Positions 4,411 through 64,000 of a DNA stretch of 64,000 nucleotides are shown here, one piece after another. The DNA comes from Hormiphora californensis. Lineage: Eukaryota > Animalia > Ctenophora. Every line of letters begins with the position of its first letter. Position 1 is the first letter of the stretch. Made by a program: the position numbers and the translations under genes. The notes beneath the pieces were generated by a model. It searched no databases. It was not told where the DNA came from and saw nothing but the letters and a program-made list of their open reading frames with translations. The stretch lies in NCBI GenBank assembly GCA_020137815.1, contig CM035352.1:7254001-7318000 (forward strand). The letters run 5' to 3'.

Positions 4411-4516
4411 GTAAACACCACTGGACGTCCAAGTGATGAAGAGGTGGCCAACCTCTTGTGCATCATTATCGGAGAAATCCAACTGAAAGACAAGAGGATA
4501 CAACGCAGGTAAACTA

Positions 4517-13955: not shown

Positions 13956-13979
13956 TTAAACCCCTGTAAAAGAATTGAA

Positions 13980-14045
13980 GAAGTTTGCCCGACACTGTGA
14001 TAAGAAAATGGGTAACATGTTCATGCAAAACTGGTTGCGACGGGG
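13980..14045 (+). pseudogene. CXC (tesmin-like) remnant typical of Academ transposase C-termini
   Basis: SLPDTVIRKWVTCSCKTGCDG; mirrored copies at ~12585-12650 and ~15909-15974. Confidence 0.45.
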
Positions 14046-14507
14046 AAAGTGCGGCTTCCAACGAAGATCTTACAATGACGGGCTACATGAGAGAAAGGCA
14101 AAAGTGGATACAAAGACAAGGGCCTCAACACACATGTGAAGATGATAAAGAGAAGCTGATGAAGATTTCGCATAGTAATCTTTTCCATGTCTTTTCAACA
14201 TCCACAATTTTCAGCCTATAGAGTTAATAACGAAGAGATAGCTAAAGCGTGGGGGATGAAAAATGCAATGTGCGTGGCCCCACCTGAATATCTCTGATAA
14301 GGAGATAACTGTTAGAAACACCTCCTGCGGCGGTCAGGAAGAGTCGATTTCGCTTAGGACAGAGTTCAGAAGATAGCGGAACTCCTATTGACTAGTCATG
14401 TAGTCAACTAGCTTCTCTAGCTGAACTTCTTTATGCAATGATATCTGCCACGGGATCACAACTCTCCTGACTCCTGAGTGGAATAATTGGTGACGCAGCC
14501 ACCCCTA

Positions 14508-15446: not shown

Positions 15447-15998
15447 TAGGGGTGGCTGCGTCACCAATTATTCCACTCAGGAGTCAGGAGAGTTGTGATC
15501 CCGTGGCAGATATCATTGCATAAAGAAGTTCAGCTAGAGAAGCTAGTTGACTACATGACTAGTCAATAGGAGTTCCGCTATCTTCTGAACTCTGTCCTAA
15601 GCGAAATCGACTCTTCCTGACCGCCGCAGGAGGTGTTTCTAACAGTTATCTCCTTATCAGAGATATTCAGGTGGGGCCACGCACATTGCATTTTTCATCC
15701 CCCACGCTTTAGCTATCTCTTCGTTATTAACTCTATAGGCTGAAAATTGTGGATGTTGAAAAGACATGGAAAAGATTACTATGCGAAATCTTCATCAGCT
15801 TCTCTTTATCATCTTCACATGTGTGTTGAGGCCCTTGTCTTTGTATCCACTTTTGCCTTTCTCTCATGTAGCCCGTCATTGTAAGATCTTCGTTGGAAGC
15901 CGCACTTTCCCCGTCGCAACCAGTTTTGCATGAACATGTTACCCATTTTCTTATCACAGTGTCGGGCAAACTTCTTCAATTCTTTTACAGGGGTTTAA

Positions 15999-39196: not shown

Positions 39197-41443
39197 GCAG
39201 CTTTTGTTAAAGAGGACTTGGATGCGGCAAAAGGGGACCCGAAGAAGCTACAAAGAAAGTTACAGAAACTCCTGGGAAAAGCGGAAACTATTCTTCCTGA
39301 GACTACCAACAACAAGAACCTGGCTGATGATTTTTCAAAGTTCTTTAGTCAAAGGTGACCAAAATTCGGACCCAAGTCAATGAGGAGCAGCAGCAGGCTG
39401 GCGATTTTGTGGAATCTGGAAAATCCTGTCATACAACATGGAATGAATTCAAAGAGATATCTGAGGAGGAACTTGTTTCATTAGTGAAATCGATGTCCAG
39501 CAAGCACTGTGACCTGGACCCGTTGCCCACTTGGGTGGTAAAGGAGTGTATAAGTGATCTGGCTCCTGCATTAACATCAATAGTCAATCAGTCTCTACAT
39601 CAGTCTTCGGTCGCAGAATCTCTCCAGGAGGCACTTGTCTTTCCTACCATCAAGAATATGTATGGAGATCGTGAAGCTCTCAGCAACTATCGTCCTGTTT
39701 CGAACATCCCATTTCTGTCTAAGCTTCTTGAGAAGGTAGTTCTCACGCAACTCAATGACTACCTGGATCGCAACTCTCTTTTGGGCAAACATCAGTCTGG
39801 CTATCGTGTTGGTCACAGTTGTGAAACGCTATTGGCAAGCATGTTCGATGACATTCTAGGGGAAATGGATAAAGGAAACGTAGTAGCTCTTATCTGTCTA
39901 GATATGAGTGCTGCTTTTGATACGGTTGACCATGGAAAGTTGTTGGAGGTGTTGCAGAAACGGTTTGGAGTGGATGGTGAACCTCTCCGATGGTTTAAAA
40001 GCTATTTGAGTTCCAGATCTTTTAGAGTTTCGGTCGGTGATTGCCTTTCGGAAACCCTTGCTTTACTTTGTGGAGTCCCTCAAGGGTCCCTCCTTGGTCC
40101 TATTTTGTTCCTACTCTACATCGAGGCTGTACAAGATATTGTGGAGCCATATGGACTCCGGATAAAGTTATATGCAGATGATTCCCAGCTCTACGTGAGT
40201 CTGGTTCCTACGGATGCTGCTGGCTGGGTTGAGGCAAAGGTGGATATTGAGGAGTGTCTGGCGAAGGTGAAGAGGTGGATGGTAGGGCAGTGGTTGAAGT
40301 GTAATGAGGCCAAAACGGAATTCATCCTGCTTGGAAAGCGCAGTTCTCTAAGCAAAGTCTCTTTTGATCCAGTTATTAACTTTGGAGGAACGGAAATCTC
40401 CCCCAGTGAATGTAGTGGAACAGATGGTAAAACCCTGGGAATTCTCTTGGATCATAACCTTGGCCTTGAACGACAGGTTAACAATGTGAGGAAACAGTGT
40501 GGACTGATGTTACGAAACCTTTGGCAACTGCACAGGTGTTTTGATATCCCAACAAAGATAATGTTGGTCAAACAGTTGATTTTATCGAGGATAGACTACA
40601 GTAACATTCTGTATTGTGGACTTCCTGGTCGAGTTCTCAGTGGGCTCCAGAAGCTTCTCAATGCCTGTGTTCGTTTTGTATTTAACCTCCACGGACACCA
40701 GGACAACTACATGGAGTATTTCAGGCAATGTCATATTTTACCGATCTCCTACAGGTTGGACTTCAAAGCATGTTTGATTGCCTACAAAATAGTCAATGGA
40801 ACAGCCCCGTGTTATCTCCAGGATTTGGTGCCACGTGATGAGACTTGGGGAACCTCTAGGACAACGAGGATGACTAATGTTCCGGATCCCTATAGGTTAA
40901 AACATCCAAAGATGACCAGTATCAATGCCAACTCTAAGTTGAGACGTAGGAGGTTATCAGTATTCCTGCCCTCTGTCTGGAATGAGCTTCCTCTTGAGCT
41001 CAGGTCAATCCCCAATGTGGATACTTTCAAAACCCGGCTGAAAACACATCTCTTCGTTGGTGCATTTGGAGTGGGTGATGGGGAACCCATGGCTGAGTTG
41101 TAATGTTTGTTGTAGTTGTGGGGCCTGCGGGCAATCAGTGTCATCCTCTCTCTAGCCATGTTATTAATTCATTACCTAGTATCCTTTTTTCGAGCAGGTG
41201 TGAGTATAGTGTGTTTTAATTTATATCTACAGGATTATGGGACCAGTTATTCCCTCAGTTTTATAAGTCAAGTTTATTTAGTCGTCTATATATTGTTTTT
41301 CAACCAGAGCTGTTCGAGTGTGTCATATAAGTAGTCGAGGATATACCGCTCTGATGATTCGGCGGAACATCGTCAATATTTTGACATGTCTCTGTCGGGT
41401 ATGGGCGGTATATAAGCGCGGAATATTATTATTATTATTATTA
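39197..41443 (+). mobile_element. 5'-truncated L2/CR1-clade LINE
   Basis: RT ORF, 3' UTR and (TTA)n tail at ~41424-41443; possible short TSD TACCA. Confidence 0.9.
39355..41103 (+). CDS. LINE ORF2 reverse transcriptase (endonuclease missing)
   Basis: NYRPVSNIPFLSKLLEK, HQSGYR, LDMSAAFDTVDH, GVPQGSLLGPILF, YADD. The frame continues upstream to ~39197 across a frameshift at ~39352. Confidence 0.92.
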   Translation: MTKIRTQVNEEQQQAGDFVESGKSCHTTWNEFKEISEEELVSLVKSMSSKHCDLDPLPTWVVKECISDLAPALTSIVNQSLHQSSVAESLQEALVFPTIKNMYGDREALSNYRPVSNIPFLSKLLEKVVLTQLNDYLDRNSLLGKHQSGYRVGHSCETLLASMFDDILGEMDKGNVVALICLDMSAAFDTVDHGKLLEVLQKRFGVDGEPLRWFKSYLSSRSFRVSVGDCLSETLALLCGVPQGSLLGPILFLLYIEAVQDIVEPYGLRIKLYADDSQLYVSLVPTDAAGWVEAKVDIEECLAKVKRWMVGQWLKCNEAKTEFILLGKRSSLSKVSFDPVINFGGTEISPSECSGTDGKTLGILLDHNLGLERQVNNVRKQCGLMLRNLWQLHRCFDIPTKIMLVKQLILSRIDYSNILYCGLPGRVLSGLQKLLNACVRFVFNLHGHQDNYMEYFRQCHILPISYRLDFKACLIAYKIVNGTAPCYLQDLVPRDETWGTSRTTRMTNVPDPYRLKHPKMTSINANSKLRRRRLSVFLPSVWNELPLELRSIPNVDTFKTRLKTHLFVGAFGVGDGEPMAEL

Positions 41444-44792: not shown

Positions 44793-45449
44793 TTACAAAG
44801 TAAAAAGGCATCCGGGTGGATGCCTTCGGCATCCACCCGGGCAGGGAAAAAATGGAATAGTCCAATCAACTCCTATACATTTCATTGATCTCACAACACT
44901 CGTTACAATCCTATTAAACATGAAAACATTGCTAGCAGTCCAACCGTAGTCTGGCCTAAGTGGAATAACTGTGGCCAGCACGATTTCAGTTGTCTTCCCA
45001 AACATGTTTCTAATTTCCCTAACGAGGTCTACATATGCGTCAAACATATCCTTCTTACCACGATGAGACCTAACAAATTTACCCCAATTCCTAATGTCGT
45101 TCGTACTGAACGCAACTATAACCTTTCGCACAACCAGTTCAGGTCGATTCTCTCTAAAACCTTTCAACATGTCTATGGCAAGACTTCCCTCCCAGTCTCT
45201 GAATGGCCTGCACAGCCTCGCACCCGATACCGACACATTTATCACATCCAGGTCCTCGTTCACCCACTTCGTCATGGAAGTTCCCAGGAGTAGAGTCCTT
45301 GGAGAATTAGGTGCCAATACCCCTGCTTCCTGTTCCTCCCCGGTTGAGGCAGGGTTTCCCTCTTCTTCTGTCTCCATCATGGCTGATTCTGCTGGAAGGG
45401 AAGGATCGGCTGGAAGCACAACGTCTTCACTGTTAGCGACAACGGTCAT
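44793..45449 (-). pseudogene. SGNH/GDSL esterase ORF1 fragment of an L2/CR1-type LINE
   Basis: Blocks TLLLGTSM, SVSGARL, VIVAFSTND and IVLATVIP; truncated before the DxxH block. The METEEEGNPASTGEEQEA segment is also at ~38582-38640. Confidence 0.75.
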
Positions 45450-47595
45450 GGTTACTAGAAGGGGAAAGGGGTTATGGTTAGTACTTCAACAAAGGGCTGT
45501 TACTGTAAAGGCTACTGTACAAAACTGGTGTGCTTAGCAATACTGCAAGGAACGGAAGTGAGTGATGTCCTTTTGTGCTTCTACCATCATCCACATCAAT
45601 TATTGGTGTCCTCGGAGGAGTTGAGCTCGCCTGGGCCATAATAAATATGCTCTAGCTCTATAACTCTTTTGATAATTTAATTAAAGGGCCCGAGGGTGTC
45701 CCTAAATCGGGGTCCGACTGTAATATCTGTTGATTGATGAGTTGCTAGTTGTTGCATCTTGTTTTTCTAATGGTTTCTGGGAAGCTGTCACAGTGTGTTT
45801 ATCACAACCAACAGCTCTGTGAAGGTGCTGTTGAGATGCTGTTAGGAGATTCTGTTAGGAGTGTTGACCATGTTGAGTCGTCCAAGTCTTCATGGAAAGA
45901 TAAGTCCATAATGATTTTGTTGATATCCTGATCTGTCATACGTGCCAGGTTTAGGAGACAATAGGCTCCGCCCTCTTTCCGGTTTCTGGGGGGAGAAGCC
46001 AGTGCTTTTGACACTTGAAAGGAATTCTTCTTTCAACTCCAACTGGTTTACGAATTGGGCGTATTGGACATGTTTGTGAGCGATTTTTTTTGCTTTCAAG
46101 CATTTTAGAGTATGCTTCTCCCACTATCTTAAACGTACACTTAGAGCGTGCAGAGTTTGATGTCAGCATTATCAATCAAGATCTTCCAACTCTCTAACCA
46201 AATATAAATACTAGAATAACTCTGCTCTATAACTCTTATGATAATTTAATAATTAACATGTCGAACCGACGTACTTTCTATAACTTAAGGTGGAGAACAG
46301 GGGACTTTTCTAACTTTAAATTCGTATCAATATTCACCTTTGATAATTGGTGGGAGTAGTGGTTTCGGTCAGCATTATCAATCAAGATCTTCCAACTCTC
46401 TAACCAAATATAAATACTAGAATAACTCTGCTCTATAACTCTTATGATAATTTAATAATTAACATGTCGAACCGACGTACTTTCTATAACTTAAGGTGGA
46501 GAACAGGGGACTTTTCTAACTTTAAATTTATAATCAAAATCAGCATAATAAAAACATTGTTTAATTATTTGCCTCCAACATGTTTTTCGTCGGTTGGCGG
46601 GGCTTGAACTGGAGAAAAAAACGATCCTTACCCTGCTGTCTCCACTTCCCGATTTAGGACATCCATGCAGCCGTAATGAATCCTCTATCTGCTTAGCTGT
46701 CAGTTTCCCATAAGGTTTCACTAGCCAGTGCTTTTGACACTCCGAAAGGAACTGTTCTTTTAGTTCCAACTGATTTACGAACTGGGCGTATTGGGCATCT
46801 TGACATGTTTGTGAGCGATTTTTTGTTGTTGCTTTGAAGCATTTTAGAGTGTTCGAAAACTTTATCAAACGCAACTCCATCTATTGGATGTGGTTGAAAC
46901 TCCGGTTGTGGGGAACACTCCTGTATCTGCTGCACTTCTTTCAAACTGTCGAACATGGTTATGTGTGCTCTTACTTTGTCAGCATCTCTGTATGGGAAGC
47001 CTCATCTATGTCCTCATCTATGTCCAATTGCCCTTCTACTGATAAATGGAGAGCTTTGTACTGTTCTAAATAGTATCGTCATTTATTATATCCTCTGACT
47101 CACAGAGTTCATGTCGTGTGTTCATACCATTTCCATTTCCGTCGTATTAGTTTTTACTGGTCAGCAGCATTTAATTTTTTTCCGACTTTCCCATGACTGC
47201 TGCACTTCTTGCTGTCGAACATGGTGTGTGCTCTCACACCCGCCCAAACTTTGTAAAGGTATCACTGTCTGTGACAAGCTGTCACAGTGTTTATCACAAC
47301 CAACAGCTCTGTGAAGGTGCTGTTGAGATATTGTAATGGCTTTTCGGTGCGGCTATCGACGGAGTTTTCACAATGGTTTTCAGCAGTGACGTCGATATCT
47401 ATCTTACAGGTTGCTGACGCATATGGAATACAATTGTGTTTCGGAACACCTGAAGCTGAAGCGGCCGGGAATGAAACTCTTGGGCGAGCTAGGTGCATTA
47501 GAGAGACTGTCTTAGGAAAACTGCTTTTATCACTCGAGTTTCTTTTCGGTGGAAGAGCACTCAGGAGGGACTCAGGAGTTGTAGGAGACTATACC

Positions 47596-50500
47596 AGCAA
47601 CTACTTGCTGTTGATGATCTATTGATAGATCTTTGGGATCAAAAACGCTGGGATTCTTCGTAACAGGTACAGCAATGTCCTCCCTTATATATCGACACGC
47701 AAGGTCCACCACTTTTCTTTTCGTTTCAGTGCTGTCTGATTTCCTAAGAAATGGACAATGTATGATTAATGATGGCTCGAGCCATTTTTAAATCGAAATT
47801 GTAATTCCTTTATATTTTTTGGGCATCTTGATTTTCTCGGGAGCGGTTTTTTTGCTTTCAAGCATTTTAGAGTGTCCGGAAACTCCATCGCAACTCCATC
47901 TATTGGATGTGGTTGAGATTCCGGTTGTGGGGAACACTCCTGTATCTGCTGCAATTCTTTCAAACTGTCGAACATGGTTATGTGTACTCGCACTTTGTCA
48001 GCATCTCCGTCTGGGAAGCTGTCACAGTGTATACATATCACAACCAACAGCTCTGCGGGGGAATCGCGAGCTAGGTGCATACTGTCCTAGGAAAACGATT
48101 GTACTGCTTTTATCACTCTAGTTTCTTTTCGGTGGAAGTGCGCTCAGGAGTTGCAGGAGACTATCATGAACTACAATTGCTGTTGATAGATCTATTGATA
48201 GATCTTTGGGATCAAAAACGCTGGGTTCCAGATTCTTCGTAACATGTACAGCACTGTCCTCCCTTATATATCGACACGCAAGGTCCACCACTTTTCTTTT
48301 CGTTTCAGTGCTGTCTGGTTTCCTAAGGAATGGACAATGATTATAATCATTTGCATTTGAATAAATTCAAATGCAAATGAGCCGAAATTGTAATTCCTTT
48401 ATATTTTTTATTCTCTCGTATTACGAGTCGTTATAGCAACAAAACATTACTTGTAGTTTAACACAAATAGAACCTACATGATCTCGGAAAGATATTGGTG
48501 ACCATTGGTCCGAGGAATTTAAATAACTCTTTAAATAATCTGTAGAATTAAAGCTATATAATACATAATTGTCTTCTTGTTTCTGATCGCATGTCGTAAC
48601 TATGAATTTCCCTACTGCCAAACTTTCAAATGATTGGAAAGGAGGGATAACTTTTCCGGTGTAGGCAATTTTATTGCTCAAGCCTAAGAGCTTTACACCT
48701 CTCAATCCACTTTCGGAGGAGCACTTGATCGCAGGCTATGTCGGTATTCTCTGCTCCACGTACAACCTGTATTTCATATTAAAACACATTGATGAATAAA
48801 TGTCAAAAAATTTCAATATTGATCTCAAATTAATTGGTCCAATTGGTATCCCACGCTCGTGTGGTCCGCCACCTTCTCCAGCGCTCCTCTCACGGACAGT
48901 TTCTCTTCCACAAGTAGCATGGCGGAAAGCTGCTCGTACTCCTTCCTGTACTCTTGCCACCATCAATCTTCGGGCAATGGGGCGACACTGTTCTCTCTCA
49001 CGTGACCTCTGTTCAAGTCTGTGTTCCTGTTGGGGCTCACGTGACCTCTGTTCAAGCCTGTGTTCCTGTTGGGGCTCACGTGACCTCTGTTCAAGCCTGT
49101 GTTCCTGTTGGGGCTCACGTGACCTCTGTTCAAGCCTGTGTTCCTGTTGGGGCTCACGTGACCTCTGTTCAAGCCTGTGTTCCTCTTGGGGCTCACGTGA
49201 CCTCTGTTCAAGCCTGTGTTCCTGTTGGGGCTCACGTGACCTCTGTTCAAGCCTGTGTTCCTGTTGGGGCTCACGTGACCTCTGTTCAAGCCTGTGTTCC
49301 TGTTGGGGCTCACGTGACCTCTGTTCAAGCCTGTGTTCCTTGCAACTACTTGCTGTTGATGATCTATTGATAGATCTTTGGGATCAAAAACGCTGGGATT
49401 CTTCGTAACAGGTACAGCAATGTCCTCCCTTATATATCGACACGCAAGGTCCACCACTTTTCTTTTCGTTTCAGTGCTGTCTGATTTCCTAAGAAATGGA
49501 CAATGTATGATTAATGATGGCTCGAGCCATTTTTAAATCGAAATTGTAATTCCTTTATATTTTTTGGGCATCTTGATTTTCTCGGGAGCGGTTTTTTTTG
49601 CTTTCAAGCATTTTAGAGTGTCCGGAAACTCCATCGCAACTCCATCTATTGGATGTGGTTGAGATTCCGGTTGTGGGGAACACTCCTGTATCTGCTGCAA
49701 TTCTTTCAAACTGTCGAACATGGTTATGTGTACTCGCACTTTGTCAGCATCTCCGTCTGGGAAGCTGTCACAGTGTATACATATCACAACCAACAGCTCT
49801 GCGGGGGAATCGCGAGCTAGGTGCATACTGTCCTAGGAAAACGATTGTACTGCTTTTATCACTCTAGTTTCTTTTCGGTGGAAGTGCGCTCAGGAGTTGC
49901 AGGAGACTATCATGAACTACAATTGCTGTTGATAGATCTATTGATAGATCTTTGGGATCAAAAACGCTGGGTTCCAGATTCTTCGTAACATGTACAGCAC
50001 TGTCCTCCCTTATATATCGACACGCAAGGTCCACCACTTTTCTTTTCGTTTCAGTGCTGTCTGGTTTCCTAAGGAATGGACAATGATTATTCAAATGCAA
50101 ATGAGCCGAAATTGTAATTCCTTTATATTTTTTATTCTCTCGTATTACGAGTCGTTATAGCAACAAAACATTACTTGTAGTTTAACACAAATAGAACCTA
50201 CATGATCTCGGAAAGATATTGGTGACCATTGGTCCGAGGAATTTAAATAACTCTTTAAATAATCTGTAGAATTAAAGCTATATAATACATAATTGTCTTC
50301 TTGTTTCTGATCGCATGTCGTAACTATGAATTTCCCTACTGCCAAACTTTCAAATGATTGGAAAGGAGGGATAACTTTTCCGGTGTAGGCAATTTTATTG
50401 CTCAAGCCTAAGAGCTTTACACCTCTCAATCCACTTTCGGAGGAGCACTTGATCGCAGGCTATGTCGGTATTCTCTGCTCCACGTACAACCTGTATTTCA

Positions 50501-50980
50501 TATTAAAACACATTGATGAATAAATGTCAAAAAATTTCAATATTGATCTCAAATTAATTGGTCCAATTGGTATCCCACGCTCGTGTGGTCCGCCACCTTC
50601 TCCAGCGCTCCTCTCACGGACAGTTTCTCTTCCACAAGTAGCATGGCGGAAAGCTGCTCGTACTCCTTCCTGTACTCTTGCCACCATCAATCTTCGGGCA
50701 ATGGGGCGACACTGTTCTCTCTCACGTGACCTCTGTTCAAGTCTGTGTTCCTGTTGGGGCTCACGTGACCTCTGTTCAAGCCTGTGTTCCTGTTGGGGCT
50801 CACGTGACCTCTGTTCAAGCCTGTGTTCCTGTTGGGGCTCACGTGACCTCTGTTCAAGCCTGTGTTCCTGTTGGGGCTCACGTGACCTCTGTTCAAGCCT
50901 GTGTTCCTCTTGGGGCTCACGTGACCTCTGTTCAAGCCTGTGTTCCTGTTGGGGCTCACGTGACCTCTGTTCAAGCATGT
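47596..50980. repeat. Recent ~1.7-kb tandem duplication
   Basis: 47596-49340 is nearly identical to 49341-~50980; duplicated ORFs 48421/50145 and 48800/50524. Confidence 0.92.
48997..49340. repeat. 39-bp minisatellite, ~9 copies
   Basis: Unit CTCACGTGACCTCTGTTCAAGCCTGTGTTCCTGTTGGGG. Confidence 0.95.
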
Positions 50981-51260
50981 GTTCCTGTTGTGGCTCACGT
51001 GACCTCTGTTAAAGTCTGGGTTCCTGTTGGGGCTCACGTGACCTCTGTTAAAGTCTGGGTTCCTGTTGGGGCTCACGTGACCTCTGTTCAAGCCTGTGTT
51101 CCTGTTGGGGCTCACGTGACCTCTGTTCAAGCCTGTGTTCCTGTTGGGGCTCACGTGACCTCTGTTCAAGCATGTGTTCCTGTTGTGGCTCACGTGACCT
51201 CTGTTAAAGTCTGGGTTCCTGTTGGGGCTCACGTGACCTCTGTTAAAGTCTGGGTTCCTG
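50721..51260. repeat. 39-bp minisatellite, ~14 copies with two unit variants
   Basis: Same unit plus the variant ...GTTAAAGTCTGGG... Confidence 0.95.
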
Positions 51261-52092
51261 GTGGATTTCCTGTTCTGTCTCGTTACTGTGTTCCTCAAGC
51301 ATCTCTTGGTCTTGCCACCATCAACCTTCGGGCGATGGGGATACAAAGAGAAGCAAGTGACTGTTACAGCGGAGGTCGACCGGGGGACGAACCAACGAAC
51401 AGTTAAGTGCATCACCCTGATTCAAGTCGTTGCACGCTCCTGCTTTGTCGTGGACAAGTAGCGAGTGTGTAGCATCCATTGCGACACCTGACTTTCTCCT
51501 CTACTTTCTTCTCGTCTGGCCAGGTGATGACTGTTATCTTGTAATTAACTCGTCGAACGGACTTTCAATAACTAATGGTGGAAAACAGGGGGCTTTTCTA
51601 ATATGTTTAGATTCAAAATCAGCATAATAAAAATGTTAATGTTTACAACAATAGTCGGTGTAAGAGGGGAGTTATTAAAACTCAGGTGAGTTTTACACGG
51701 TTAGGTTATTATAATACTCAAGGCAGTTGTATTCAGGGGAGTGCACTGTCGAGAATGTGTGTTTTCGAGCTCTTGTTCTGAGTATTGAGCTGAGTGTTTG
51801 TATGTTCAATAAATGGCATAACATACTACTACTACTACGAGTGCCTGGGCTTGCCAACGGCAAGCCCACAGGGGACTATCGCAAGCGATATCGCCGGCAC
51901 TAGGAGAGCAGCCCCCCCAATCCCCCCACGAAAAAACCAAGAGGTTACAACAAGGACCTGTCATCTGACACGATCACTTGAAGGTGGTTCAAGGATTGGA
52001 GGTGCGTCTCCTGCGGTAGTTGTTTGATTTGTTTCTATTGTTTCCCTGTTCTGTGTATTTCCCCTGTGCTACCATCAGGGGTTATACTCTCC

Positions 52093-52825
52093 TTATTTCA
52101 TTTTTTTTTCTTTCTCTTCTTTTGCTTTGAGTTCATGAACTTTGCTTATGATCTTTAAGGCTTCCTCTGTGTGGTGTAGTATTGTTTCTCCTAGGTTATC
52201 GTAGTTTGTTTTTCCGCTTATTCTCATTCTTACTATTTTCAGTGTTTCGCAATCGCATATCAGGTGTTTGGATGTTTCCTCTGCCTTAGAACATAGGCTA
52301 CATGTTGCTGAGTTTGTTTTCCCAATTTTTTGAGGTACTTGTTGAATGGTCCTATATTTGTGGTGAGGTGTGTGATGTTTCTGAATTTCTTCCTGTTCTT
52401 TTTGTATATTTCTATCTTTTTTGTGAGTGTTTTTCCAAGTTAATTTGCTCGTGATTATTTGTTTTGTTTGTTTGCCGCCTTTTTTAAGGAAATGATTCCA
52501 TGTGTTTTCCTTGGCTGTTTCCTTAGTGTTTGTTTTGATGTAACTCTGGGGGATTGGGCTTGGTAGACTTTCGCTTATTTGTTTCTTACTTCCTTCTTTG
52601 GCTAGTATGTCAGCCGCCTCGTTGCCTTCTATCCCTATATGTGCTTTAACCCATTTGACTGTTACGTGATTGTGTTGGGCCAGTTTATTTAGCTCGTTAT
52701 TGCTCTGCTTTATAGTTTTGGTGTCCACTGTATGTTTTCCTAGAGCTTTTATGCTTGCTGCTGAGTCTGATCTGATGTGTATTGTCTTGTTTCTGATGTC
52801 CATGTTGTTGAGTTCTTGTTCCATT
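52093..52825 (-). pseudogene. LINE ORF2 C-terminus: RNase H plus CCHC knuckle
   Basis: IHIRSDSAASIKAL, KWVKAHIGIEGNEAADILAK, CSLCSKAEETSKHLICDC; internal frameshifts. Confidence 0.9.
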
Positions 52826-52964
52826 ACAGAAATGCGACCCAATGGGCCCTTTTCGTAATTCGACAATAAACGTGGAACGTAATGTGTGAATTGAGATAGA
52901 GATCCACTGGCCAATCAGGACACTTGATTCTCAATGTGCGATAATTAATAGCCAGTGCCACACC

Positions 52965-53280
52965 TGAGAGGGGGATAACGAGAGGGGCATAATGAAATGG
53001 GGAACCGGGAATGAGAAATTGGGAGATAGGAGGGAAAGAGATGGAGAATGAGATATGGGAATGAGTTTGGGAAAGAGGGGAGAATGAGAGGGGGGAATGA
53101 GAGGGGGATAATGAGCGGGGGAGTGAGAGATTGGGATATAGTGGGAATGAGAGGGGGAATGAGAGGGGGAATGAGAGATGGGAATGAGAGATGGGAATGA
53201 GTTTGGGAGAGAAGAGGGAATGAGAGGGGAGAATGAGAGGGGGGACTGAGATTGGGAGAGAGGGGAATGAGAGGGGAATT
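52965..53280. repeat. Degenerate (GGGAATGAGA)n purine-rich repeat
   Basis: Direct reading. Confidence 0.85.
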
Positions 53281-53593
53281 TTTACTGGGAAGAACTATTT
53301 TAGGTATACTTACAAAGGCAAAGAAATCAATACACACATCAGAACCGTACACACTAAGGACCCCACACAGCGTCTGCTGCAGCTAAGGGGCCCTGAAATC
53401 TAGATAGAAGGCTAGTAAAATACTGCAAAAGCCTCGTCACGGTAATTGAAGTACTAAAGAGAGGGGGTAGAAAATACCTGGTGGACTGGGCGGCTATCCC
53501 GAGGGTGGAGCAGCCTCATATCTCGGACTGTGAACATGAACAGAGTGGGGAGGGGTAGGGGGAGGGGTAGGGGGAGGGGAGGTGTATTGTGTA

Positions 53594-54850
53594 CTAGAGA
53601 ACGTTACTGGGTACAATGGACTCAATCAGGTGTTTCTTAGTGAGACGGACAAACTCAGTCAGTGAATCACTCTGTCTGATAGAGTAGGGCAGCTTATTCC
53701 ACAAATCAGTGACTCGGTGAAAAAAGCTAGTCCTAAGAGCCCTATGAGTGTTCGTGTGGTAGGCAGACATGAACACTAGAGTCGTTTTGTCACGACCCTC
53801 ACGAATGTCACTATTCTGACGGGTGGCTCTGAGTGTGCTGGGGTTGATCGGTTGAATGTACTGAGGGACAGTGATGCTAATCATACCATACACAATCTTG
53901 TAAAACAATCTAAGATCGTAAAACTCGAACAGCTGCTTAAACGGGAGAAGGTTCAAACTCAAGAGATGATCCACATACTCGTCATTAGTATACGAGGCAA
54001 GTGGTTCATTTCTGATCCATTTCACAACCCGTTTTTGCAGCAGTTCAAGTGACCTCAGACTACCAGCATTCACACACGACCAGACCTGGTTACAGTGCTC
54101 AACTAACGACCTCACCATGGACAGATACAGTGTTCTCTTACAAGAACTCCTACTGAGGAAATAACAAGTCCTGCGGAGCAGGTTGAACTTAAACGACATG
54201 GATGTGATAATAGAGTCACAGTGGGAGTTGAAATCTAAAGTGCTGTTGATGACAATACCCAGGTCACGTTGGTTAGTGACATACTCCAGAGCCACCCCTC
54301 CAAGAGAGTAGAAGTACTTGTGGAAGGGGAGGCTACTGAATGGGTTAGATGACTGTGTGGTAGGGCTGATGACACTCAGAACCTGGCACTTAGCTGGGTG
54401 AAACCGCATCATGCTCCGAATTGACCAATCATACAAGGCATCAATTGACTTCTGAAGTTCAAAATGATCACTCATACTGTCTATTCTGCGCCAGATCTTG
54501 GTGTCATCAGCGTACAGGGAGATGTTAGTCCCAGGTGACGTTAAGTTAAATATATCATTAATAAACAGGACGAACAATACAGGACCTAAGATGGATCCCT
54601 GGGGTACACCAGAGGCCACCGGAAGGATATCAGAGCTCCCACCATCAATAACAACTTTCTGAAATCTATCCTTCAGGTAGCTCCTAATGAGTCCCAGCAA
54701 CTGACCACCCACACCAAAACCCAGCTTCAGCTTACTCAGTATCAGATCATGATTACAAGAATCGAAGGCACGGGAGAAGTCAAAGTATACAACATCTACC
54801 CTTGCCCTCGCGTCTAATGCTTCTGCCAGATTGTGGGTGAATGGAATAAG
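53594..54850 (-). pseudogene. CR1-type reverse transcriptase
   Basis: VDVVYFDFSRAFDSCNH (upstream of the tracked ORF), GVPQGSILGPVLFVLFINDI, LYADDTKIW, RDLGIV, FFHRVTDLWNKLP. Confidence 0.92.
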
Positions 54851-54879
54851 TTGTGTGGTACAGGATCTACAGATGTTAA

Positions 54880-55578
54880 CGAACTAACACGGTAAAAGGT
54901 GGTTATACAGAAACTGATGTTGGTACTACAGTTGAAAACAACACTGAGAATCTCTGCCTGGGTACTAAAGCGGTCAAACTTATAACTAGAGAGAGAAAGG
55001 TCTTCCCTATGCGCTATAAGCACCCCACCACCATTGGCCCTAAACTTCTTGGGTTGATCGGGGTCAAAGGGATGGGTAGCAGCACAGCGATCCAGTCTGA
55101 ACACTTTGTAACCATTAGAGAATATCTCACTAGGCTTGATATTGCTTTTCAACCATGTCTCGTTAATGACTATAATATCGGGCTTGTGAGTGTAGATGAA
55201 GTCCTGGAATTCTAGGACCTTGCTCACAGCCAGGTCAGGAGAAGTCTGACTAAGGTTGGCAGTGTGAACAAAGCCCCGAACATTATTATAGAGCACACTC
55301 AGAGAACGAGGTCCTGGGTTGGCAATACTGGGGTTACAGACAAACAGCATGAGAAAGTTCATCACACACAAGAAGAGAGAAATCACAATATGGGACGTAC
55401 TATGATCTCTCTGTCTGGTGGTAAAGATGACGATACACACTAGATTAACAAACGGTCTAATAGCACACAGGGGGTGGGTAGGGGGGAGGAGGGGCAGAAC
55501 AGCTGGGGTTACTGTAGGGGATGGGTTAGTGATAGACAGGTGAGCAAAGAAACAGAGTGAAACGATAAACGTGTACAT
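54880..55578 (-). pseudogene. APE endonuclease N-half preceded by a hydrophobic leader and NPGP
   Basis: SIANPGP, YNNVRG, PDIIVINETWL, YKVFRLDR, GGGVLIA, TTFYR; fused to mid-RT by a deletion. Confidence 0.88.
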
Positions 55579-56184
55579 GAACAGTCCGAGAATGAGGCCA
55601 CATACCAGTTCGAGGAAAGCCGCAAAGTCCGCAGGTCCTTCTAGATTCCCCTGGTTTACACATCTAGAGACATAAACACACTTTCCAATCCTCTCTCTAT
55701 ATAACTCTAAACATATTGGTATTAGTGGCGAGAAGGGGGGCTACCCGTGCACAGGTAAAAACAGTATAGTGGGGGCAAGAAGGGGGCGGACCGGGGCAAA
55801 CAGCGAGGTAGGTAGAGCAAAAGGGTTAGGGAACGACCAGCAAGTATAGGGTTTGGGGAGTGGGGATCAGATAAACAAACCCGAGTAAATATCCAATTAG
55901 ATATTCAATCACTGTGAGAGTAAAAACTGAGAATCTAGACTTGTTTCCAAAAAAGAAACAAAACACAGTTCAGCTAAAAATAGACACTATAGCTCCACCC
56001 TCCCCAACATTCTCTACTCCTGGGTTAGGAAGAACAGTCTCCCAAATAAGGTATAAAGAGTTCGATCACGTGACAAGCGGTGCTCTCTCTCCCTCGCTCC
56101 TTACTACCCTTGCCTGCAGATGTACAATACATATAATACACGACACGTGATCAATCAGGCAGGGGCTAAAAAAGACAGTCAATA

Positions 56185-56923
56185 CTAAGATCTCTCATTC
56201 AGTTGATTCACATTTGTGATCCGTCTCTTGAAAGTATCGTCAGACATCTTAACAGAGAACATCTTAACCGGCCCGTCGAAATACACTTTGCTCACTCCCT
56301 CACACTCCTCCAGTTGCCTCTTCCTCTCCAGAACAGCAGGTGGGGTATAATGGTAAGCACCAATATTCTTCTTTCTCAGGGGACCCTGTCGCCTGTAATC
56401 AGAAACAATGTCCTTATCCCGGATATGACTAAAAACAATAGTGACTGAGCGGGGTTTGGCTGGATCCTTCAATTTGTTCCGGTGTACAGTTGATATCCGG
56501 CTGGATGTGAAGTCGGGAATGATCTCCCTAACATGCTTGGCCACCACCTCAGTGATGTCCTCGCTGGGGTCCTCTTTTATACCGGTCAGAATGGTGGTAG
56601 ATCTCCCGGAGTATGATTCAGACTTCAGCAGGCGGTCCTCAAGGGAGGGGTCGCTGGTCTGGCCAGTGGAGACAAGAGCCAAGAGGTCCCATCGACTCCA
56701 AACGAGTCTCAAGAGCTGCATTACTCTTCTGGAGCTCTGCAACGGTGCTTTTGAGAGCAGCATTTTCCTCTCGGATCTCAGCGATGGCAAAATACAGAAC
56801 ATTGAATACTGCGGCAATGTCACCATGTTTAGCAGCAAGTTTTTTGGACTCAGCTATCACCTTAGACTGGTCTAGAGCAAGAAAGGCACTGGTATCGGTT
56901 CTAGTACGGGTAGCAGTGACCAT
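56185..56923 (-). pseudogene. LINE ORF1 (coiled coil plus RRM-like), one frameshift
   Basis: EIREENAALKSTVAELQKSNAALETRLE, then ESYSGRSTTILTGIKE...ISTVHR...PRSVTIVF; frameshift near 56670. Confidence 0.8.
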
Positions 56924-57777
56924 GTTTAATTAATCAAGGTGGCAGGAATTTGTTGGGGGTGAAGAAGAGTAGATGTATCAGGAGCTCTAAAAACACGACC
57001 AAATATACGATGGCAATTGCAATGAGAGAGAAGGAGAGAGAGGGAGAGAGAGAGAGAGACTATAAGAGAGATATGTACTTACTTTTGATACTTTTGCTAT
57101 GATTTTGCTAGTTAAACATAATACAGGCAATTCTATCCGGTATAATATTTCATTTTGGCCCCCTAGTACATATCTTGAGAAGTACTGTCTAATTATACTC
57201 TTTCATATATCCTCTCATATTTCTGGGATATGCACATAAGGAATTCTCTCTCTCCCTCTTATCTCGTTCCTTTAAAATTATTTTTTCAATTTTAAACAAT
57301 TTCAATATCTCAAGTTCATCATGTAAGCATGTATGTCAAAGACAGCCGTGGCCATTTTGGCAATTTTGGGTCATTTTGGGGTCTTAATTGAATATTAGTA
57401 CTGCAAAATCGTTGTTTCTCTTTAATCATTTTGGGGTCGTTTTGGGAACGCATTTCCACAATAGTAAAATTTAGTTTCAATTTAGACAGCCTTTGGGTTG
57501 GCTAAATTCTCAGCCTGTTTAGTCGAAATTTTAGTGCTAGGTTAGTGGGGCTTATATGGGTTCAGTGTGAAATGGGGCGTGAAATCACGTGACTTGTACC
57601 ACGTGGAGGGGGTTTTAGTATGGAACTAATCCCTCTCTAAAACCCTACTCAAAGCACAAACAACCAACACTAATTCTGTAGTTCGTGGACGAAATCGATA
57701 GAGCTCTCCAATTTTCACACTCAAAAGGCCTAATTAGTCGAGATCTAAAAGTTTAGTACTGTTCGTGGAGGACACCC

Positions 57778-58287
57778 GGGGGACGAACCAACGAACAGTT
57801 AAGTGCATCACCCTGATTCAAGTCGTTGCACGCTCCTGCTTTGTCGTGGACAAGTAGCGAATGTGTAGCATCCATTGCGACACCTGACTTTCTCCTCTAC
57901 TTTCTTCTCGTCTGGCCAGGTGATGACTGTTATCTTGTAATTAACTCGTCGAACGGACTTTCAATAACTAATGGTGGAAAACAGGGGGCTTTTCTAATAT
58001 GTTTAGATTCAAAATCAGCATAATAAAAATGTTAATGTTTACAACAATAGTCGGTGTAAGAGGGGAGTTATTAAAACTCAGGTGAGTTTTACACGGTTAG
58101 GTTATTATAATACTCAAGGCAGTTGTATTCAGGGGAGTGCACTGACGAGAATGTGTGTTTTCGAGCTCTTTTTCCGAGTATTGAGCTGAGTGTTTGTATG
58201 TTCAATTAATGGTACAACATATGCTCCTAAATCATGTGCACTTTTGTCGTTTCTGTAACCTTGAAGATTGGGGGGAAAATAAGAAAT
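57778..58287. repeat. Duplicate of the LINE target locus (empty site)
   Basis: Matches 51382-51824 and continues into sequence matching 63872-63935. Confidence 0.9.
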
Positions 58288-59899
58288 TTTGAATTTTTTT
58301 GTATTTTTCCCAGTCAGTGTTTTTGTCTGATTTGGTTTTTCTGAATTTGTGTGTCATTAGATTCAATTTAGCTCTTATGTATTTGTGATCTGTATTTATG
58401 AATTCGTTACTAACTTTCCATTTGTCGATTAATTCACTTCCTAGCTTGTTGGTGATTGTAAGATCTATTATTGTTTGTTGAATTCTTGAGTTCTCGAAGG
58501 TAGGTTTGTTGTCATGGTTGATGATGTAGAGTTCATTCTGTGCTATCGCGATTTGTAAGTCGTCCCCTCTCTGGTCTGTTTTTTTGTCGCCCCAAATGGT
58601 ACTATGTGCGTTCGTGTCGCTGTTTATTATTAGTGCGGCGTTCTGTTTTTTGGCGTGTGTGGTCAGACCCTGTATGATTTTTGTGTATTGTGATATGTCC
58701 TTTTTCTCTTTCTTCCCGGCCATGTATATAGTGGCCATTACTATTTTCTGTTTATTTTCGTTTATTTGTATGGCAATGGAGTCTCTGCTGGAGAATTCGT
58801 GTAGAGTTATTGCTTTTTTGCAGTGGTTTTTGTGTAACCCCATGGCCACTCTTGGTCTTTCTTTTGTCTCCTCGGGTTTAATTATTCTGATGTCCTTGTG
58901 TATGTTTGGGATTTTAAATTTGGTGTTGCAATAGGGTTCGCAAATGAAGATGATCGGCGCTTGATTATTGATAATGTTAGAGGAGAGTGTTGCTATTGCG
59001 TCTTCTTTGTGTTGTTGGTTGGTGTATATCATGGATATTTGTACTGGTTGGTTGTGAGCAGATTTGTTTCTGTTATTTTTGTCAGATGGTTGTGTTTTAT
59101 TTATTTCTGTGGGTTCGGTTTTGTTCCCGCTTGTTTTTTTGAGTTTCATGTTCAGTTTCATTTCTGCAGTTGGTTTCGCTTTTTGTTGAGTTCTATTTAT
59201 TGTTAATTGAGTGTTTTTTGTTGGTTTGAAGTATGATGTAATGGGTTTTGTTGTCAATTCTGTCTTTACTGTTGTTATGTCTGTGTGTCCTTTTGCTGTT
59301 GTTGTTTCGTGATTAGGTTCTTCTGTTTGTTTGTGAGATCGTTTGTTGCCCGTTGATCGTTGTGTTGGTGTTGACCATGGCCCATGGTCGCTTTGGCATT
59401 TAGGTGTTATAGATTTGCTGTGTGGGGTGGTCGGTTCTACCGTTTTAGTACCATGTTGTTTGTTAGCAGCTGCTTTTGTTTGGGTTTTGTTGGTGTTTTC
59501 CTTTTTCCTAATTTTTGACCTGAATTTGTTACTTCTTTCTTTGGGTCGTTTCCTTTTTGTTGTTTTTCCTTCATCCTGTTCCGCTGTTTCTGGTTTAGTT
59601 GAAGTATGCTCCACTTTCCTAATTTTTGCTCGGTGCATGTTTGGTTGTGTTTCAGGTCGTTTCCTTTTTTGTGTTGTTGGTTCAGAGTTGGTTTGACTGT
59701 GTCTTTTTCCTATCGGACCGTTCTTTGTGGGTTTGTTGTAATAGTAGGAATTTGTTATTTTTATTGGGGCGGTTATTACGGCTTGTTTGTCGTTTGGGTC
59801 CCCGTGGTTTTTGGTCAGTTCGGAAGTCGTTGCTGCATGTGTGTTCGTGGCACTTGGACCATTACGAGGCACTGGGGCCTTTACGTTGCTCTTTGGCAT
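58288..59899 (-). CDS. LINE ORF2 N-terminus: low-complexity basic leader plus APE endonuclease (3' truncated)
   Basis: MIYTNQQH, PIIFICEPY, ATIYM, IINSDTNAHSTIWG, KPTFEN, IIDLTITN, TDHKYI. Confidence 0.9.
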
Positions 59900-60630
59900 T
59901 ATGGTTGTTCGAGGCTCTTGGGCCTTTACGAGGCACGTAGGCCTATAAGTTGCGCTTGGGCAATTGTACTTACCGATCCTTGGTGGTTGTTGTCTACATT
60001 GCTAGTCTGCAGGGTGAGAGTTAGTGTCAGAATGGTGAATAGAAGGAGTTTCGCATCATGTAACCACGCGCTTGGAACTGATGTCTGGTGGGCTAGCGGA
60101 CGTTTCTCAGAGCAGAAGATGACCTACGCTGCAGCTACCTCTTCGTATTGAGGCGCGCGGCGAAGGGATTGCAGCGCATTCGAAAACAAAAGGGAAAATG
60201 TACAAACAGAATTTATTTGTTTTTTATTTTTATGCTCGCCCTGGGGTGCAATGAAGCTTCGCACGCCGCTAGTCAGTTTGCTCGCGCGGTTGTGTTTTAG
60301 CGCGTGACAGGGACGGCAGTCTTGCTTTCCGGAGATTTTTCCCGTGGTTAAAATCTGATTTTTGAAGATGTCACCCCCTGGGTGACGCGCGATGTTTTAT
60401 TTGCGCGTCGTAAACATTTATGCTAGTTTTTTGGCTCTCCCACCTTTGTTTCTTGACCACGCGTGAGAGGGGAGGAGACAACTTCAAAAAATCCGACTTT
60501 AGGCTATTAAGAGTCGTTTGTTAGGTTTGGAGTTAGAAAATTTAAAGTTTAAAATTTAAATGGATATTAAAAAGAATAGTTCATCGATTACAGTTCAACA
60601 CAATGGCCAAAGGATTGTCTGGAGGGGGTA

Positions 60631-62973
60631 TTAGTCATCCATGGGATGGCTGATGTCCAACACGGATACCCCCTTGACCAACATTCCACTAGCATCTTTA
60701 AGTTGGAACGGTTTGAGTCCAGGGTCCTTGGTCTTGGGGCTTGAGCTTCCAGTCTGTCCCTGTGGTGAGGATGTGTTGTTAGGGGATGGTTTGGGAGAAA
60801 ACCAGATTTTCTCAGACGTGTGAAATGTTATTTGGGTAAAGTGACTGGTTCTCAGCCAATCGGTAAGTAATATTTCCTGGTTCGGTCGGTTACTAATTAC
60901 GTAAGTCTAGTTATAGTACCTGCTTCTTGTCGGGGGGGGGGGGACATGTTAATTGTTAATAAATCACCTCTTTTTTCCGATTTTGTTAATTAACGTTAAT
61001 TAACAAAATTAACAAAATTAACAAATGCTAAAATATTGGTGTTATCGGTTGATAATACGACTTTAACTGATTTAATTTTGTAGTTTAATAACTTATCTAA
61101 CATTTGTATACCCATGCAAGACCTCCTCCGATAACCAAAGTCCAACATACAAGTTTTTTGGCTCCAAATTGATCAAAATTTAAAGAGTACGAATATTTCA
61201 ATTTAGCGTGTAAAATGTCACTTGAATGTAATTTTTTCATTGATAATCCATTCTTCAGACGAAAGAAAGTGATGTACAACGTTTCTGTTTGAAAAATACG
61301 AAAAAATTCCCAAAATTGCTTTTTTTGGTCAAAAATTGAAAATTTGCTTCGCTACAAATCCTTGTGTTTTTTTAGAAAAAATTATTTTTGGGATATTTTT
61401 CGATTGAAGGTAAATTTATGAGTCTTATTAAGTTTTTAAGGTTAGAAAATGTGGATTAGTGTCATTTGACCTCAATTGCGGTTCAGGTTGGCTAGTTTTT
61501 GTTCGAATTTACAAAATGGAACAAATCGTTGTGGGAAGGCTGTAGTAGACGGCTTGGGGGTATGCAAATCATGCAGAAGGAACATCTTTGTTCGCAGAAC
61601 AACATGCAGCATGTGTAATACCAAAAAAGGGACTTTAGATGGTATACATGGCATTTGTTAATGTTTGTTAACTTTTGTTAATTATGTTAATAAATCACCT
61701 GTTTTTTCGATGTTAATATTAACAAAGTTAACAAAATTAACATGTCCCCCCCCCTTCTTGTCCTTATTCTTGTTCCTCTTATCCTTTTCTTGTCTGAGTT
61801 GGTTCTGTGCTTCTTGTAGTGCTGCTTGGTGTTGCTGGAGTTGCTCCGCCTGTTGCTGCATCAATAGTTGCTGCTGTGTGATGTATTCTTGCTGCTCCAT
61901 CTGTTGTCGGGCCAGAGTTTGTATCTCCTGTTGTTGTGCTAACAGAGCCTGTAGGTGGAGTTGTTAGCCTTGCTGTAGGAGGGGTTAGTTGGGTGGGGTG
62001 TGGAGATGGGGGTGGAGGGTATGGGGGGGGTGATGGTGTGTATTGTTGAGTTGTACCTGGTTTGTGTTGGCGTTCTGGTCTAGCATCTGTTGGTTAGCTT
62101 GGTCATTCTGGTCCATACGTTCATCCGCTGGTTCATTGTTACCGGGTACTATTCCATTACCGGGTACTACTCCGTGTCCGGGTACAGCTCCATGTCCAGG
62201 TACAGCTCCGTTTCCTGGTGTCATTCCGTTGACTCCAGCAACATTTCGGTTTCGGTTCTGTATGGGGGGAGGGGTTGTTAGTAGGGATTGTTATACTTCA
62301 TCTTCAGAATTTGATAGTTAGAGGGGGGAGTGGTAATTTGTTTACCAGTCTTATATAAGTTAGGGGGTTGTTAGGGGGGGGGGGGTTGGTAGTGGGTTTG
62401 TACTTTTATATTATTCTGAATTCGGTAGTTTTGAAGGAAGGGATTATGGGAGGAGGGGAGGTGTATTTCACTTGCCTGTCTTATATAGGGAGGTGGGGGC
62501 CTAGCTGTTCCCTCTCGTCTTCTTACATTGAGTATTCTGAAACCAGGAACTGGTACGATCAAATCTTGTGCTAAATCTCCCATTACATAGAGTAGATGAT
62601 GGCCCTTTATACTGAGTTGGACTGGAGGTCTGGTCAGAATTGCAGGTTCTAACCACCCGAGAATCCTGGACATTGTCTCCCTCGATTGTAAATGATTATA
62701 TGTATCGACGTCCCGTAGCGAGTGGGTATGGAGATCATCCTCTTCACATACGTATTGAGCAGGTACACCTGGAATGTTATCTGCAGTCAACATCAGGGAT
62801 CTGCCTCGGTAGTCCCGGTTCGTTAACAAGGGAATGTTTTGTTGCAGGAGGAAAGCCTCCAGATCCTTAAAATCCGCGTCTTCAAGCGTCAGCATCTCGG
62901 TACTATAAATCCTAAGTTGGCGGCCTCTCGGGGCACGCATTATCTTCTGCTGTGGGGTCAGTCTCCTTGCCAT
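60631..62973 (-). CDS. Predicted 4-exon, ~341-aa gene in the ORF1 position, interrupted by a MULE MITE
   Basis: Exons 62973-62476, 62257-62057, 61948-61754 plus 60922-60920, and 60759-60631. Introns are GC-AG, GT-AG and GT-AG, each phase 0 with a CTAAC branch point. ACCATGG start; Q-rich coiled coil. Confidence 0.7.
60932..61753. mobile_element. MULE-type MITE with 9-bp TSD
   Basis: CTTCTTGTC at 60923-60931 and 61754-61762; TIRs G(n)ACATGTTAATT...AATTAACATGTC(n); internal CxxC...CxxC remnant at ~61560-61615. Confidence 0.85.
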
Positions 62974-63793
62974 GGTTGCTACATGAGAGAATATTGGTTA
63001 TTTGCTGCTGTCGATAGGGGTGTGAGGGTGGTGGGTTGGGTGTAGAGGGGGTGAGAAGGGAGGGGCGGCGTAATTACAAGTGGTATTTGGATAATAAGAG
63101 ACGAGGGAAAGGGGATACTGATATTACACTACTACAGTTGTGTTGGAATGGGGGCAGTAGAGAGCAATATTATTAACAATGTCAGATTTTGAGGGAGGGA
63201 GGCTAAGGGTGATGCGTTACAATTATACTATCAAGAGCTTAGGATATTGACAATTGAGACTTGAGATGATGGGGAGAGAGGTAAGACTGATGTCATCTAA
63301 TTAGCGGCAGTCGAGAATTGAGATATTATTATACTACAGCATTTAGGAGTTGTGAGGCTACAATATTGCTAACAACATTAGTGAAATGCGATAGTTGTAG
63401 AGGAATACTGTTGCTGCAGTGACTATAGTGATATGGTATAGAGGAACAACTGTACTACTGTCAACAGGCAATGAAAGAGGAGGTCAGGGAAGAGCGGCGT
63501 AACTGCTGGCTACGTTTGAGAAATGAGGTGATGAGAGAGAGAGAGAGAGATTGCGCGCGCGCTGTTCGTTGGTTAGTGGAGTTGTGTATCTGTTGTAGTC
63601 GGCGCAGCTGTCGGTACTCGCGCGTTACGTCTTTGGTTTGGGTCTGTATAGAGTGCGGGGTAAAGGTCAGTTGGAAAGAAGGAGAAGGGGGTTGTTGTAA
63701 GTGTGTAGATCGTGGTGTCGACGGCGAGCCGTTATCGTCGGTAATACCGAAGGTCGGATAGGTCCGAAGGTTGGAGGGTGAAGAAGATTGGTT

Positions 63794-63859
63794 GGCTCTC
63801 AGTCAAGACTGAGAGCCTTAAGCCACTGCGCCGCGGCAAGGCTCTTCTTCGTGCAGTGG
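63794..63859 (-). ncRNA. Predicted pseudoknot and alternative hairpin at the LINE 5' end
   Basis: CCACTGC/GCAGTGG crosses AGAGCCTT/AAGGCTCT; competing stem GGCTCTCAGTC/GACTGAGAGCC. Confidence 0.45.
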
Positions 63860-64000
63860 ATGGCATAACATGCTCCTAAATCATGTGTACTTTTTTCGAT
63901 TCTGTAACCTTGAAGATCTGGTGGGCAATAAGAAATGTCTTGTCGATGATCTTCTTCTTTCTCTTTTCGGCCCTTCAAATTCGTATCAATATTCACCTTT

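Follow-up and report, generated by a model that had tools for sequence, protein, structure and literature searches.

A LINE of the ctenophore Hormiphora californensis with a first gene that is spliced in RNA yet keeps its introns in DNA copies

Introduction

By textbook account, retrotransposition of a LINE is recognised by introns that have been lost, and the standard reporter assay relies on the same effect. The retention of introns by Penelope-like elements (PLEs) is called highly unusual, and its cause unknown, in the matched passages of PMC8557442. Introns have been recorded in transcripts of L1, Tad, kangaroo-1 and PLEs and in antisense transcripts of TART, their importance being unestablished according to the relevant excerpt of PMC1636488. 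The proteins encoded by ORF1 are sorted by a scheme that includes a type V and in which type I is recognised by an RRM directly upstream of CCHC knuckles (PMC4120745, in the excerpted text). Among the literature matches listed, a set outside of which lie Repbase, the Pleurobrachia bachei genome paper and supplements, the passages retrieved describe no LINE with an ORF1 that needs several introns to be removed, and those of PMC8226300, PMC6431247 and PMC10294476 contain no further such LINE.

The element described below is apparently an undescribed LINE variant, verified in RNA. It was found in a stretch of 64,000 nucleotides of Hormiphora californensis DNA (the window), and all its features lie on the minus strand unless stated otherwise. 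Of 13 public runs listed, the contigs of eight were compared with the window, namely all three labelled as RNA and five of the ten labelled as DNA (X1, X2, X7, X8 and X11), while X3–X6 and X12 (5 of the 13) were left out. The RNA label of X9 is an automatic guess, and the spliced joints found in this run fit RNA.

Results

The element and its target site

The window copy begins at 63859 and is bounded by a 12-bp target site duplication (TSD), as the preliminary description had proposed. Its 5' copy (63860–63871) and its 3' copy (51813–51824), the latter directly behind a (TAG)n tail, match exactly and there is no third in the window; in a chance estimate, a common 12-mer was met in only 2 of about 20,000 random 30-bp pairs. 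The flanks are the two halves of a host repeat that stands unbroken near 38.2 kb, and in this paralogous empty site (about 38.1–38.3 kb) the target is present once, with 2 of 12 letters unlike the version common to both element ends. Two independent insertions at one favoured site were considered as the source of the duplication and rejected, because both ends carry a target version that the paralogs lack; the unrelated flank found in X11 (see below) also counters this reading. No terminal inverted repeat was found at the ends of the window copy. The 3' UTR (51825–52092) is structured, with a terminal hairpin (51868–51846) before the tail, and none of 200 shuffles was equally stable (z = −3.99).

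Two remnants of ORF2 are preserved. The 5' part (58291–59899) encodes a basic N-terminal extension and an APE endonuclease (Pfam PF14529), the best solved-structure match of which is TRAS1 ORF2p, and is broken off at 58291; it is 87% identical to the relative P0002 and has its start in common with P0001. The 3' part (52093–52818) encodes the second half of RNase H (Pfam PF00075) and a CCHC motif, contains two compensating frameshifts, and shows 72–85% identity to P0002 in windows that avoid the stretch with the frameshifts. In place of the RT and the first half of RNase H stands a foreign segment (52819–58290, no strand assigned) made of a copy of the host repeat, another repeat, an internally deleted CR1/L2-like LINE (56929–53594) and simple repeats. 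The window copy is dead, since its RT has been replaced by 5.5 kb of other repeats, and the RT at 54883–53594 belongs to the nested CR1/L2-like LINE and has about 20% identity to the family ORF2. In the nested LINE (53594–56929), the coiled-coil ORF1 is frameshifted, and sequence between APE and RT has been deleted.

Four relatives of ORF2 (P0001–P0004) were found in metagenome assemblies at 88, 86, 56 and 51% identity. All of them carry APE and RT, three (P0002–P0004) have RNase H and CCHC after the RT, and P0002 matches both remnants of the window copy. With an APE domain N-terminal of a non-LTR RT (in the relatives), RNase H and CCHC, a TSD with a short-repeat tail, and neither LTR nor terminal inverted repeats, the element is by its ORF2 and its ends an APE/RNase H LINE with the architecture of the I/R1 group. 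From its motifs, we take this ORF2 to be a member of that group (LOA, R1, I, Nimb, Ingi, Tad1), and it presumably resembles LOA.

A gene of four exons

Between the 5' end at 63859 and the start of ORF2 at 59899, within the TSD, lies a gene that the preliminary description had assembled from four frames joined through three phase-0 introns into one protein, with the third donor in frame only when a MITE is left out. The introns, their splice signals and the MITE lie where that description had placed them. Exon 1 (62476–62973) encodes a conserved domain of about 155 aa that belongs to no known family, and is followed by intron 1 (62258–62475; GC-AG, 218 nt). Exon 2 (62057–62257) encodes VPGxG repeats and an N/Q-rich linker, and intron 2 (61949–62056; GT-AG, 108 nt) separates it from exon 3 (61754–61948), which is Q-rich, with a likely coiled coil and a basic end; a motif scan finds a further in-frame acceptor at 61973 within intron 2. 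The last codon of exon 3 (60922–60920) lies on the far side of the MITE (60932–61753, no strand assigned), a high-copy element of 822 bp with terminal inverted repeats and a 9-bp TSD (61754–61762 and 60923–60931). Intron 3 (60760–60919; GT-AG, 160 nt) and exon 4 with the stop codon (60631–60759) complete the gene. Joined as 62973–62476, 62257–62057, 61948–61754 plus 60922–60920 and 60759–60631, the exons give 341 aa with 0 internal stops, a reconstruction without the MITE (822 bp) and with its 9-bp TSD reduced to a single copy. Left unspliced, the frame meets a stop at 200 aa. The G content of the introns is 5–12%, against 22–26% in the exons.

Contigs of RNA that span the junctions were found for all three introns. 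Intron 1 is skipped exactly in contigs of X9 and X10, which come from two studies, and intron 2 in X9, from one study. A 991-nt skip in X10 reproduces letter for letter the MITE-free form minus intron 3, and contig 9 of the same run covers 60671–60762, reaching into exon 4. Splicing thus takes place at the predicted bases of all three introns. The gene is present in two of the three RNA-labelled runs, X13 having pieces of the MITE only. The X9 transcript has all 10 exon-1 differences of the X2 majority element contig, plus 2 more, and therefore derives from element-type sequence.

In DNA, the same introns are present. Record 6 of X1 bridges intron 1, and record 6 of X2 holds it whole together with 26 letters of exon 2; the acceptor of intron 2 is crossed unspliced in X1 (record 4) and X2 (record 5); intron 3 is crossed unspliced, with the MITE absent, in X2 (record 5) and in X7 and X8. 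The MITE is an insertion in the window copy, missing from the DNA of X2, X7 and X8, where it appears as an exact skip of 831 nt, as well as from the RNA of X10. The DNA contigs of three samples thus retain introns, and all show or fit the MITE-free form. No joint falls on an intron boundary in the full table of X1 or among the 15 of 17 joints listed for X2, X7, X8 and X11, and a continuous intronless ORF1 was not seen in the four gene-covering DNA runs of three samples. As contigs drop rare variants, this is evidence for the dominance of the intron-bearing form, which rare intronless copies could accompany. X7 and X8 also contain a copy with a deletion of 189 nt (61971–62159) that has cost it some of exon 2 and the greater part of intron 2 and does not end at splice sites.

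Several insertion sites and the link to ORF2

The first base of the element, 63859, meets other flanks in four samples (X1, X2, X7 and X11). In X11 and X7 the contigs carry 84 and 30 unaligned flank letters, respectively, which are unrelated to the flank in the window, and in both X1 and X2 a contig starts exactly at this base. We infer that in a de Bruijn assembly such a start marks the point where different flanks converge; several loci are indicated, because a filled and an empty allele of one locus would have left 30 nt of flank on the contig. The depth of the gene is 3.7–6.5x (X1) and 4.1–6.3x (X2) relative to the contig with the ORF2 variant of the window copy, a ratio taken against one variant and without a single-copy calibrator, so that it could mean as few as 2–3 loci. 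The gene is thus not single-copy, and the family is low-copy, with perhaps 2–6 loci. At an 80% threshold, the depth of ORF2 in X7 and X8 is 20–40 over the APE region versus about 5 or less over ORF1, which fits 5'-truncated or diverged copies. The introns thus disappear from the RNA but remain in the DNA of copies inserted at different sites.

The gene is linked to ORF2 outside the window locus as well. Record 5 of X2 runs from intron 2 through exon 3, intron 3, exon 4 and the spacer to a point 10 nt short of the ORF2 ATG; record 4 of the same run overlaps it by 30 nt, is identical over 1648 nt, and extends a further 639 nt past the break at 58291. A loose end of X7 at 58291 translates, by eye, to the continuation seen in P0002. 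The link between the gene and an intact ORF2 is thus a chain of overlapping contigs and not one molecule, and the TSD and the tail are known from one copy, no second copy having been seen whole, with both ends and a TSD of its own.

The predicted ORF1 protein

A full HMMER search of 1.84 billion representatives returned four relatives of the exon-1 domain, at 77, 55, 38 and 32% identity, whereas word-based searches with exon 1 gave no match. The two named relatives are gene models of P. bachei, and one of these models, P0012, contains two nearly identical copies of the domain in tandem. The protein had no match in Pfam, in PDB by sequence or in the Atlas, and locus scans of metagenome contigs, viral contigs and prokaryote genomes yielded no relatives. 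AlphaFold models built from the single sequence could not be used (pLDDT 33 and 35), and a fold search gave Z ≤ 3.3; a candidate double-RRM pattern can be discerned by eye. Past the exon-1 domain follow a G/P-rich linker, a Q-rich segment with heptad bias and a basic stretch. The earlier report of VPGxG repeats, of a Q-rich segment and of missing CCHC knuckles stands: with 1 Cys in 341 aa the spliced protein has no CCHC knuckle, the feature expected of a type I ORF1.

The place, size and charge of the protein suit an ORF1 of the unclassified type V, its putative function. In X9, 7 synonymous and 9 mostly conservative changes were counted among 16 of 19 changes listed (expected synonymous fraction 0.227, P = 0.05), a borderline test in which transition bias was ignored and which lends weak support to constraint on the protein. 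Just past the domain, two distant relatives read Q-V-S and K-A-S where the protein described here has Q-A-S; at the amino-acid level this is a hint that a donor may be read through in the relatives.

The 5' region and the spacer

The region of 886 nt upstream of the gene (62974–63859) is likely to contain an internal promoter and to serve as an outron. It has four upstream ATGs and, by a simple score, no donor-like site. An unpaired candidate spliced-leader acceptor (62979–63010) ends 5 nt before the ATG of ORF1, and its AG-free stretch of 24 nt and G content of 8% are as in the confirmed acceptors. The spacer of 731 nt between ORF1 and ORF2 (59900–60630) contains AATAAA motifs at 60401, 60228 and 60217, branch plus acceptor motifs ending at 60504 and 60007, and a GTAAGT donor motif at 59973. 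The motif at 60007, which has no paired donor by a simple score, follows the last AATAAA by about 210 nt and precedes the ATG of ORF2 by 108 nt. The two acceptor-like sites of the spacer (three motif hits, two of them with one common AG) compare with 0.33 in shuffles. Near the 3' end there is no acceptor motif with which the donor at 59973 could skip ORF2. Splicing in cis from exon 3 to 60007 would give an ORF1 of 325 aa ending 26 nt before ORF2.

At least 56% of ctenophore mRNAs are trans-spliced with a leader (PMC8527503, in the passages matched), and the corresponding passages of PMC7986045 hold no ctenophore operon data. Our RNA contigs contained neither a leader-bearing sequence nor a poly(A) end, and in them the 5' region and ORF2 are without cover; to this missing cover, as to the missing cover of APE in X1, we gave no weight. 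Eleven loose letters on contig 22 of X9 were considered as a spliced leader and rejected, being the NuGEN SPIA adaptor (PMC4595745, in the part retrieved). The end of this contig at the 62979 acceptor site has by itself a chance of about 0.1, and the final six letters of the ctenophore leader are spelled by the end of the adaptor together with the base that follows it, which is a weak hint only. Contig starts at 59938/59941 were likewise rejected as 5' ends of ORF2-only copies and taken as ordinary graph branches: in X1, a listed sequence variant is 30 nt away from the start, and the other starts were interpreted likewise. No class of copies starting at 60007 was seen, record 5 of X2 crossing this position unbroken.

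Part of the spacer (60267–60660) is a very high-copy repeat (depth to 42,000 in X1 and 6,200 in X2) that is nevertheless fixed in the family consensus; it was either inserted long ago or has given rise to a short element derived from it. At 59842–59962 the first codons of ORF2 are duplicated in tandem (57 bp, 81%); the extra copy stands immediately before the ATG and is not in frame, and it is accompanied by an ATG-stop mini-ORF (59999) and the 59973 donor motif.

Other features of the window

The window also contains a GDSL/SGNH esterase-like ORF (44796–45485, minus strand) and a separate LINE RT (39349–41100, plus strand). Near-perfect inverted repeats at 12117–16740 and 4510–6408 (1749 nt at 100%, 1185 nt at 99% and 461 nt at 96%, with loops of 24–29 nt) are fold-back elements or assembly artefacts. 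At 48832–51401, two arrays of a 39-bp unit with frames open on both strands lie within a tandem duplication of 1.7 kb.

Discussion

The data are best explained by an APE-RT-RNase H LINE that makes an ORF1-type protein from spliced RNA, while the introns stay in its copies, the template being the unspliced full-length RNA (probability about 0.7). What was seen directly is the splicing, the introns in DNA, several 5' flanks, the TSD and tail of one copy, and the contig chain into ORF2. The preliminary description had suggested that this family mobilises unspliced RNA and expresses ORF1 from spliced RNA; the splicing and the retention in DNA proved correct, none of the three outcomes that it had named as refuting was observed, and the unspliced template is a likely conclusion from these results: the RNA is spliced while the DNA copies are not, so new copies probably arise from unspliced RNA. 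Insertion would proceed by target-primed reverse transcription, and ORF2p, judging by what is known of this family of elements, would recognise the structured 3' end. Against this reading stands the protein, which is unlike any known ORF1 in Pfam, PDB or the Atlas.

The same element might instead use as its template a nascent nuclear or an antisense RNA that the spliceosome has not touched, with no selection against processed copies. For the introns of PLEs, the excerpts of PMC3846280 propose an antisense template or unspliced sense RNA. The antisense idea, however, was made for elements with terminal repeats, which are absent in this LINE, and its tail, 3' hairpin and TSD fit ordinary priming on the sense strand, so that we regard this version as unlikely.

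The absence of CCHC and of any likeness to known ORF1 types could also mean that the gene is a passenger and not an ORF1, a host gene captured once before ORF2 by 5' transduction or promoter capture; even then the template would still be unspliced RNA. The base composition of exon 1 is indeed host-like (29% A, versus 46–49% in ORF2), and its domain occurs in the two P. bachei gene models. On the other hand, there is no other ORF1 candidate between the 5' end and ORF2, and the displayed DNA contigs place the gene in the element throughout and show no parental locus in which the exons adjoin other flanks. The identities of the exon-1 relatives (77, 55, 38 and 32%) moreover parallel those of the ORF2 relatives, which, though the two sets are unlinked, is as expected if subfamilies of gene and LINE have travelled together. 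On balance, capture seems to us rather improbable.

The proteins of a LINE usually act by preference on the very RNA from which they were translated, as is established for L1, and this raises the question of whether spliced RNA is copied too, intronless full-length copies being rare or dropped from contigs while intron-bearing masters dominate. Contigs show presence and not absence, and the splice from exon 3 to 60007 would make an ordinary bicistronic LINE RNA with the 325-aa ORF1. An intronless copy with an intact ORF1 and a promoter, however, would be fully fertile and should take over, since introns cannot return, and none appeared in the four DNA runs of three samples; we consider this course very unlikely. 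That gene and LINE have spread as a unit of DNA, by segmental duplication or as the cargo of a DNA transposon, so that the introns never passed through RNA, is very unlikely too: duplicated segments abound in the window (51371–51825 recurs at 57767–58221 with 97.8% identity) and the copy number is low, but the copies leave their flanks exactly at the base adjoining the TSD, and the ends of the window copy have no inverted repeat, the 3' end having the hairpin, the (TAG)n tail and the TSD instead.

Within the reading that the unspliced RNA is the template, it may be asked why the introns are kept. A fertile intronless copy with a promoter should take over, and processed RNAs may for this reason be poor or sterile templates, an explanation that we hold tentatively and put somewhat short of even odds. 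The ORF1 RNA could end early at the AATAAA signals of the spacer and would then lack the 3' end with its hairpin, and spliced-leader trans-splicing at the acceptors at 62979 (for ORF1) and 60007 (for ORF2) could strip the promoter region. New active elements would in this case be founded by copies of unprocessed RNA only, and introns would be without cost. In a more specific and doubtful form of this explanation, the LINE would behave as a spliced-leader operon: from one promoter-bearing pre-mRNA the host would produce an ORF1 mRNA, trans-spliced and with three introns removed in cis, and an ORF2 mRNA, trans-spliced separately. Both would lack the promoter and be sterile as templates, and only the unprocessed nuclear RNA would be copied into new active elements. 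If this is true, a LINE in a host that practises trans-splicing is at liberty to carry introns.

An APE LINE whose first protein requires the removal of three introns, and which nevertheless inserts with these introns, must keep apart the RNA that serves as mRNA and the RNA that serves as template. Such a LINE may offer a natural system for studying the choice of template RNA by a retroelement and the reason for which PLEs keep their introns. Annotation would take ORF1 genes of this kind for host genes, and the two Pleurobrachia models may be examples.

With the LINEs of the I/R1 group the element shares an ORF2 of the order APE-RT-RNase H-CCHC, the TSD, the short-repeat tail and the 3' hairpin. 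It differs from them in a first gene that needs three introns out and has neither CCHC nor a recognised RRM, and in a spacer of 731 nt with poly(A) signals and acceptor motifs. As in L1, where spliced copies that have lost the promoter (SpIREs) are dead ends (matched text of PMC5860796), the LINE RNA can be spliced; in those cases and in the antisense RNA of TART, however, splicing damages ORF1 or concerns antisense, non-coding RNA, whereas here it is needed for the protein. The survival of introns through retrotransposition is common to our element and the PLEs (PMC8557442 and PMC3846280, in the passages retrieved), the group in which it has mainly been described so far. PLEs, according to the same passages, have a telomerase-like RT, a GIY-YIG endonuclease or none, and pseudo-LTRs, and the characterised active ones carry one intron in the 5' UTR, in contrast to the APE, LINE-type RT, RNase H and three coding introns found here. 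The closest working model is the short Gag RNA of Ty1/Copia elements, in which the structural protein is made from a spliced, early-terminated RNA and the unspliced RNA is the genome (excerpts of PMC5580714). That system is an LTR element with one intron, the removal of which takes out pol; in our case the structural gene of a non-LTR element contains three introns, and early termination is what we propose for its RNA.
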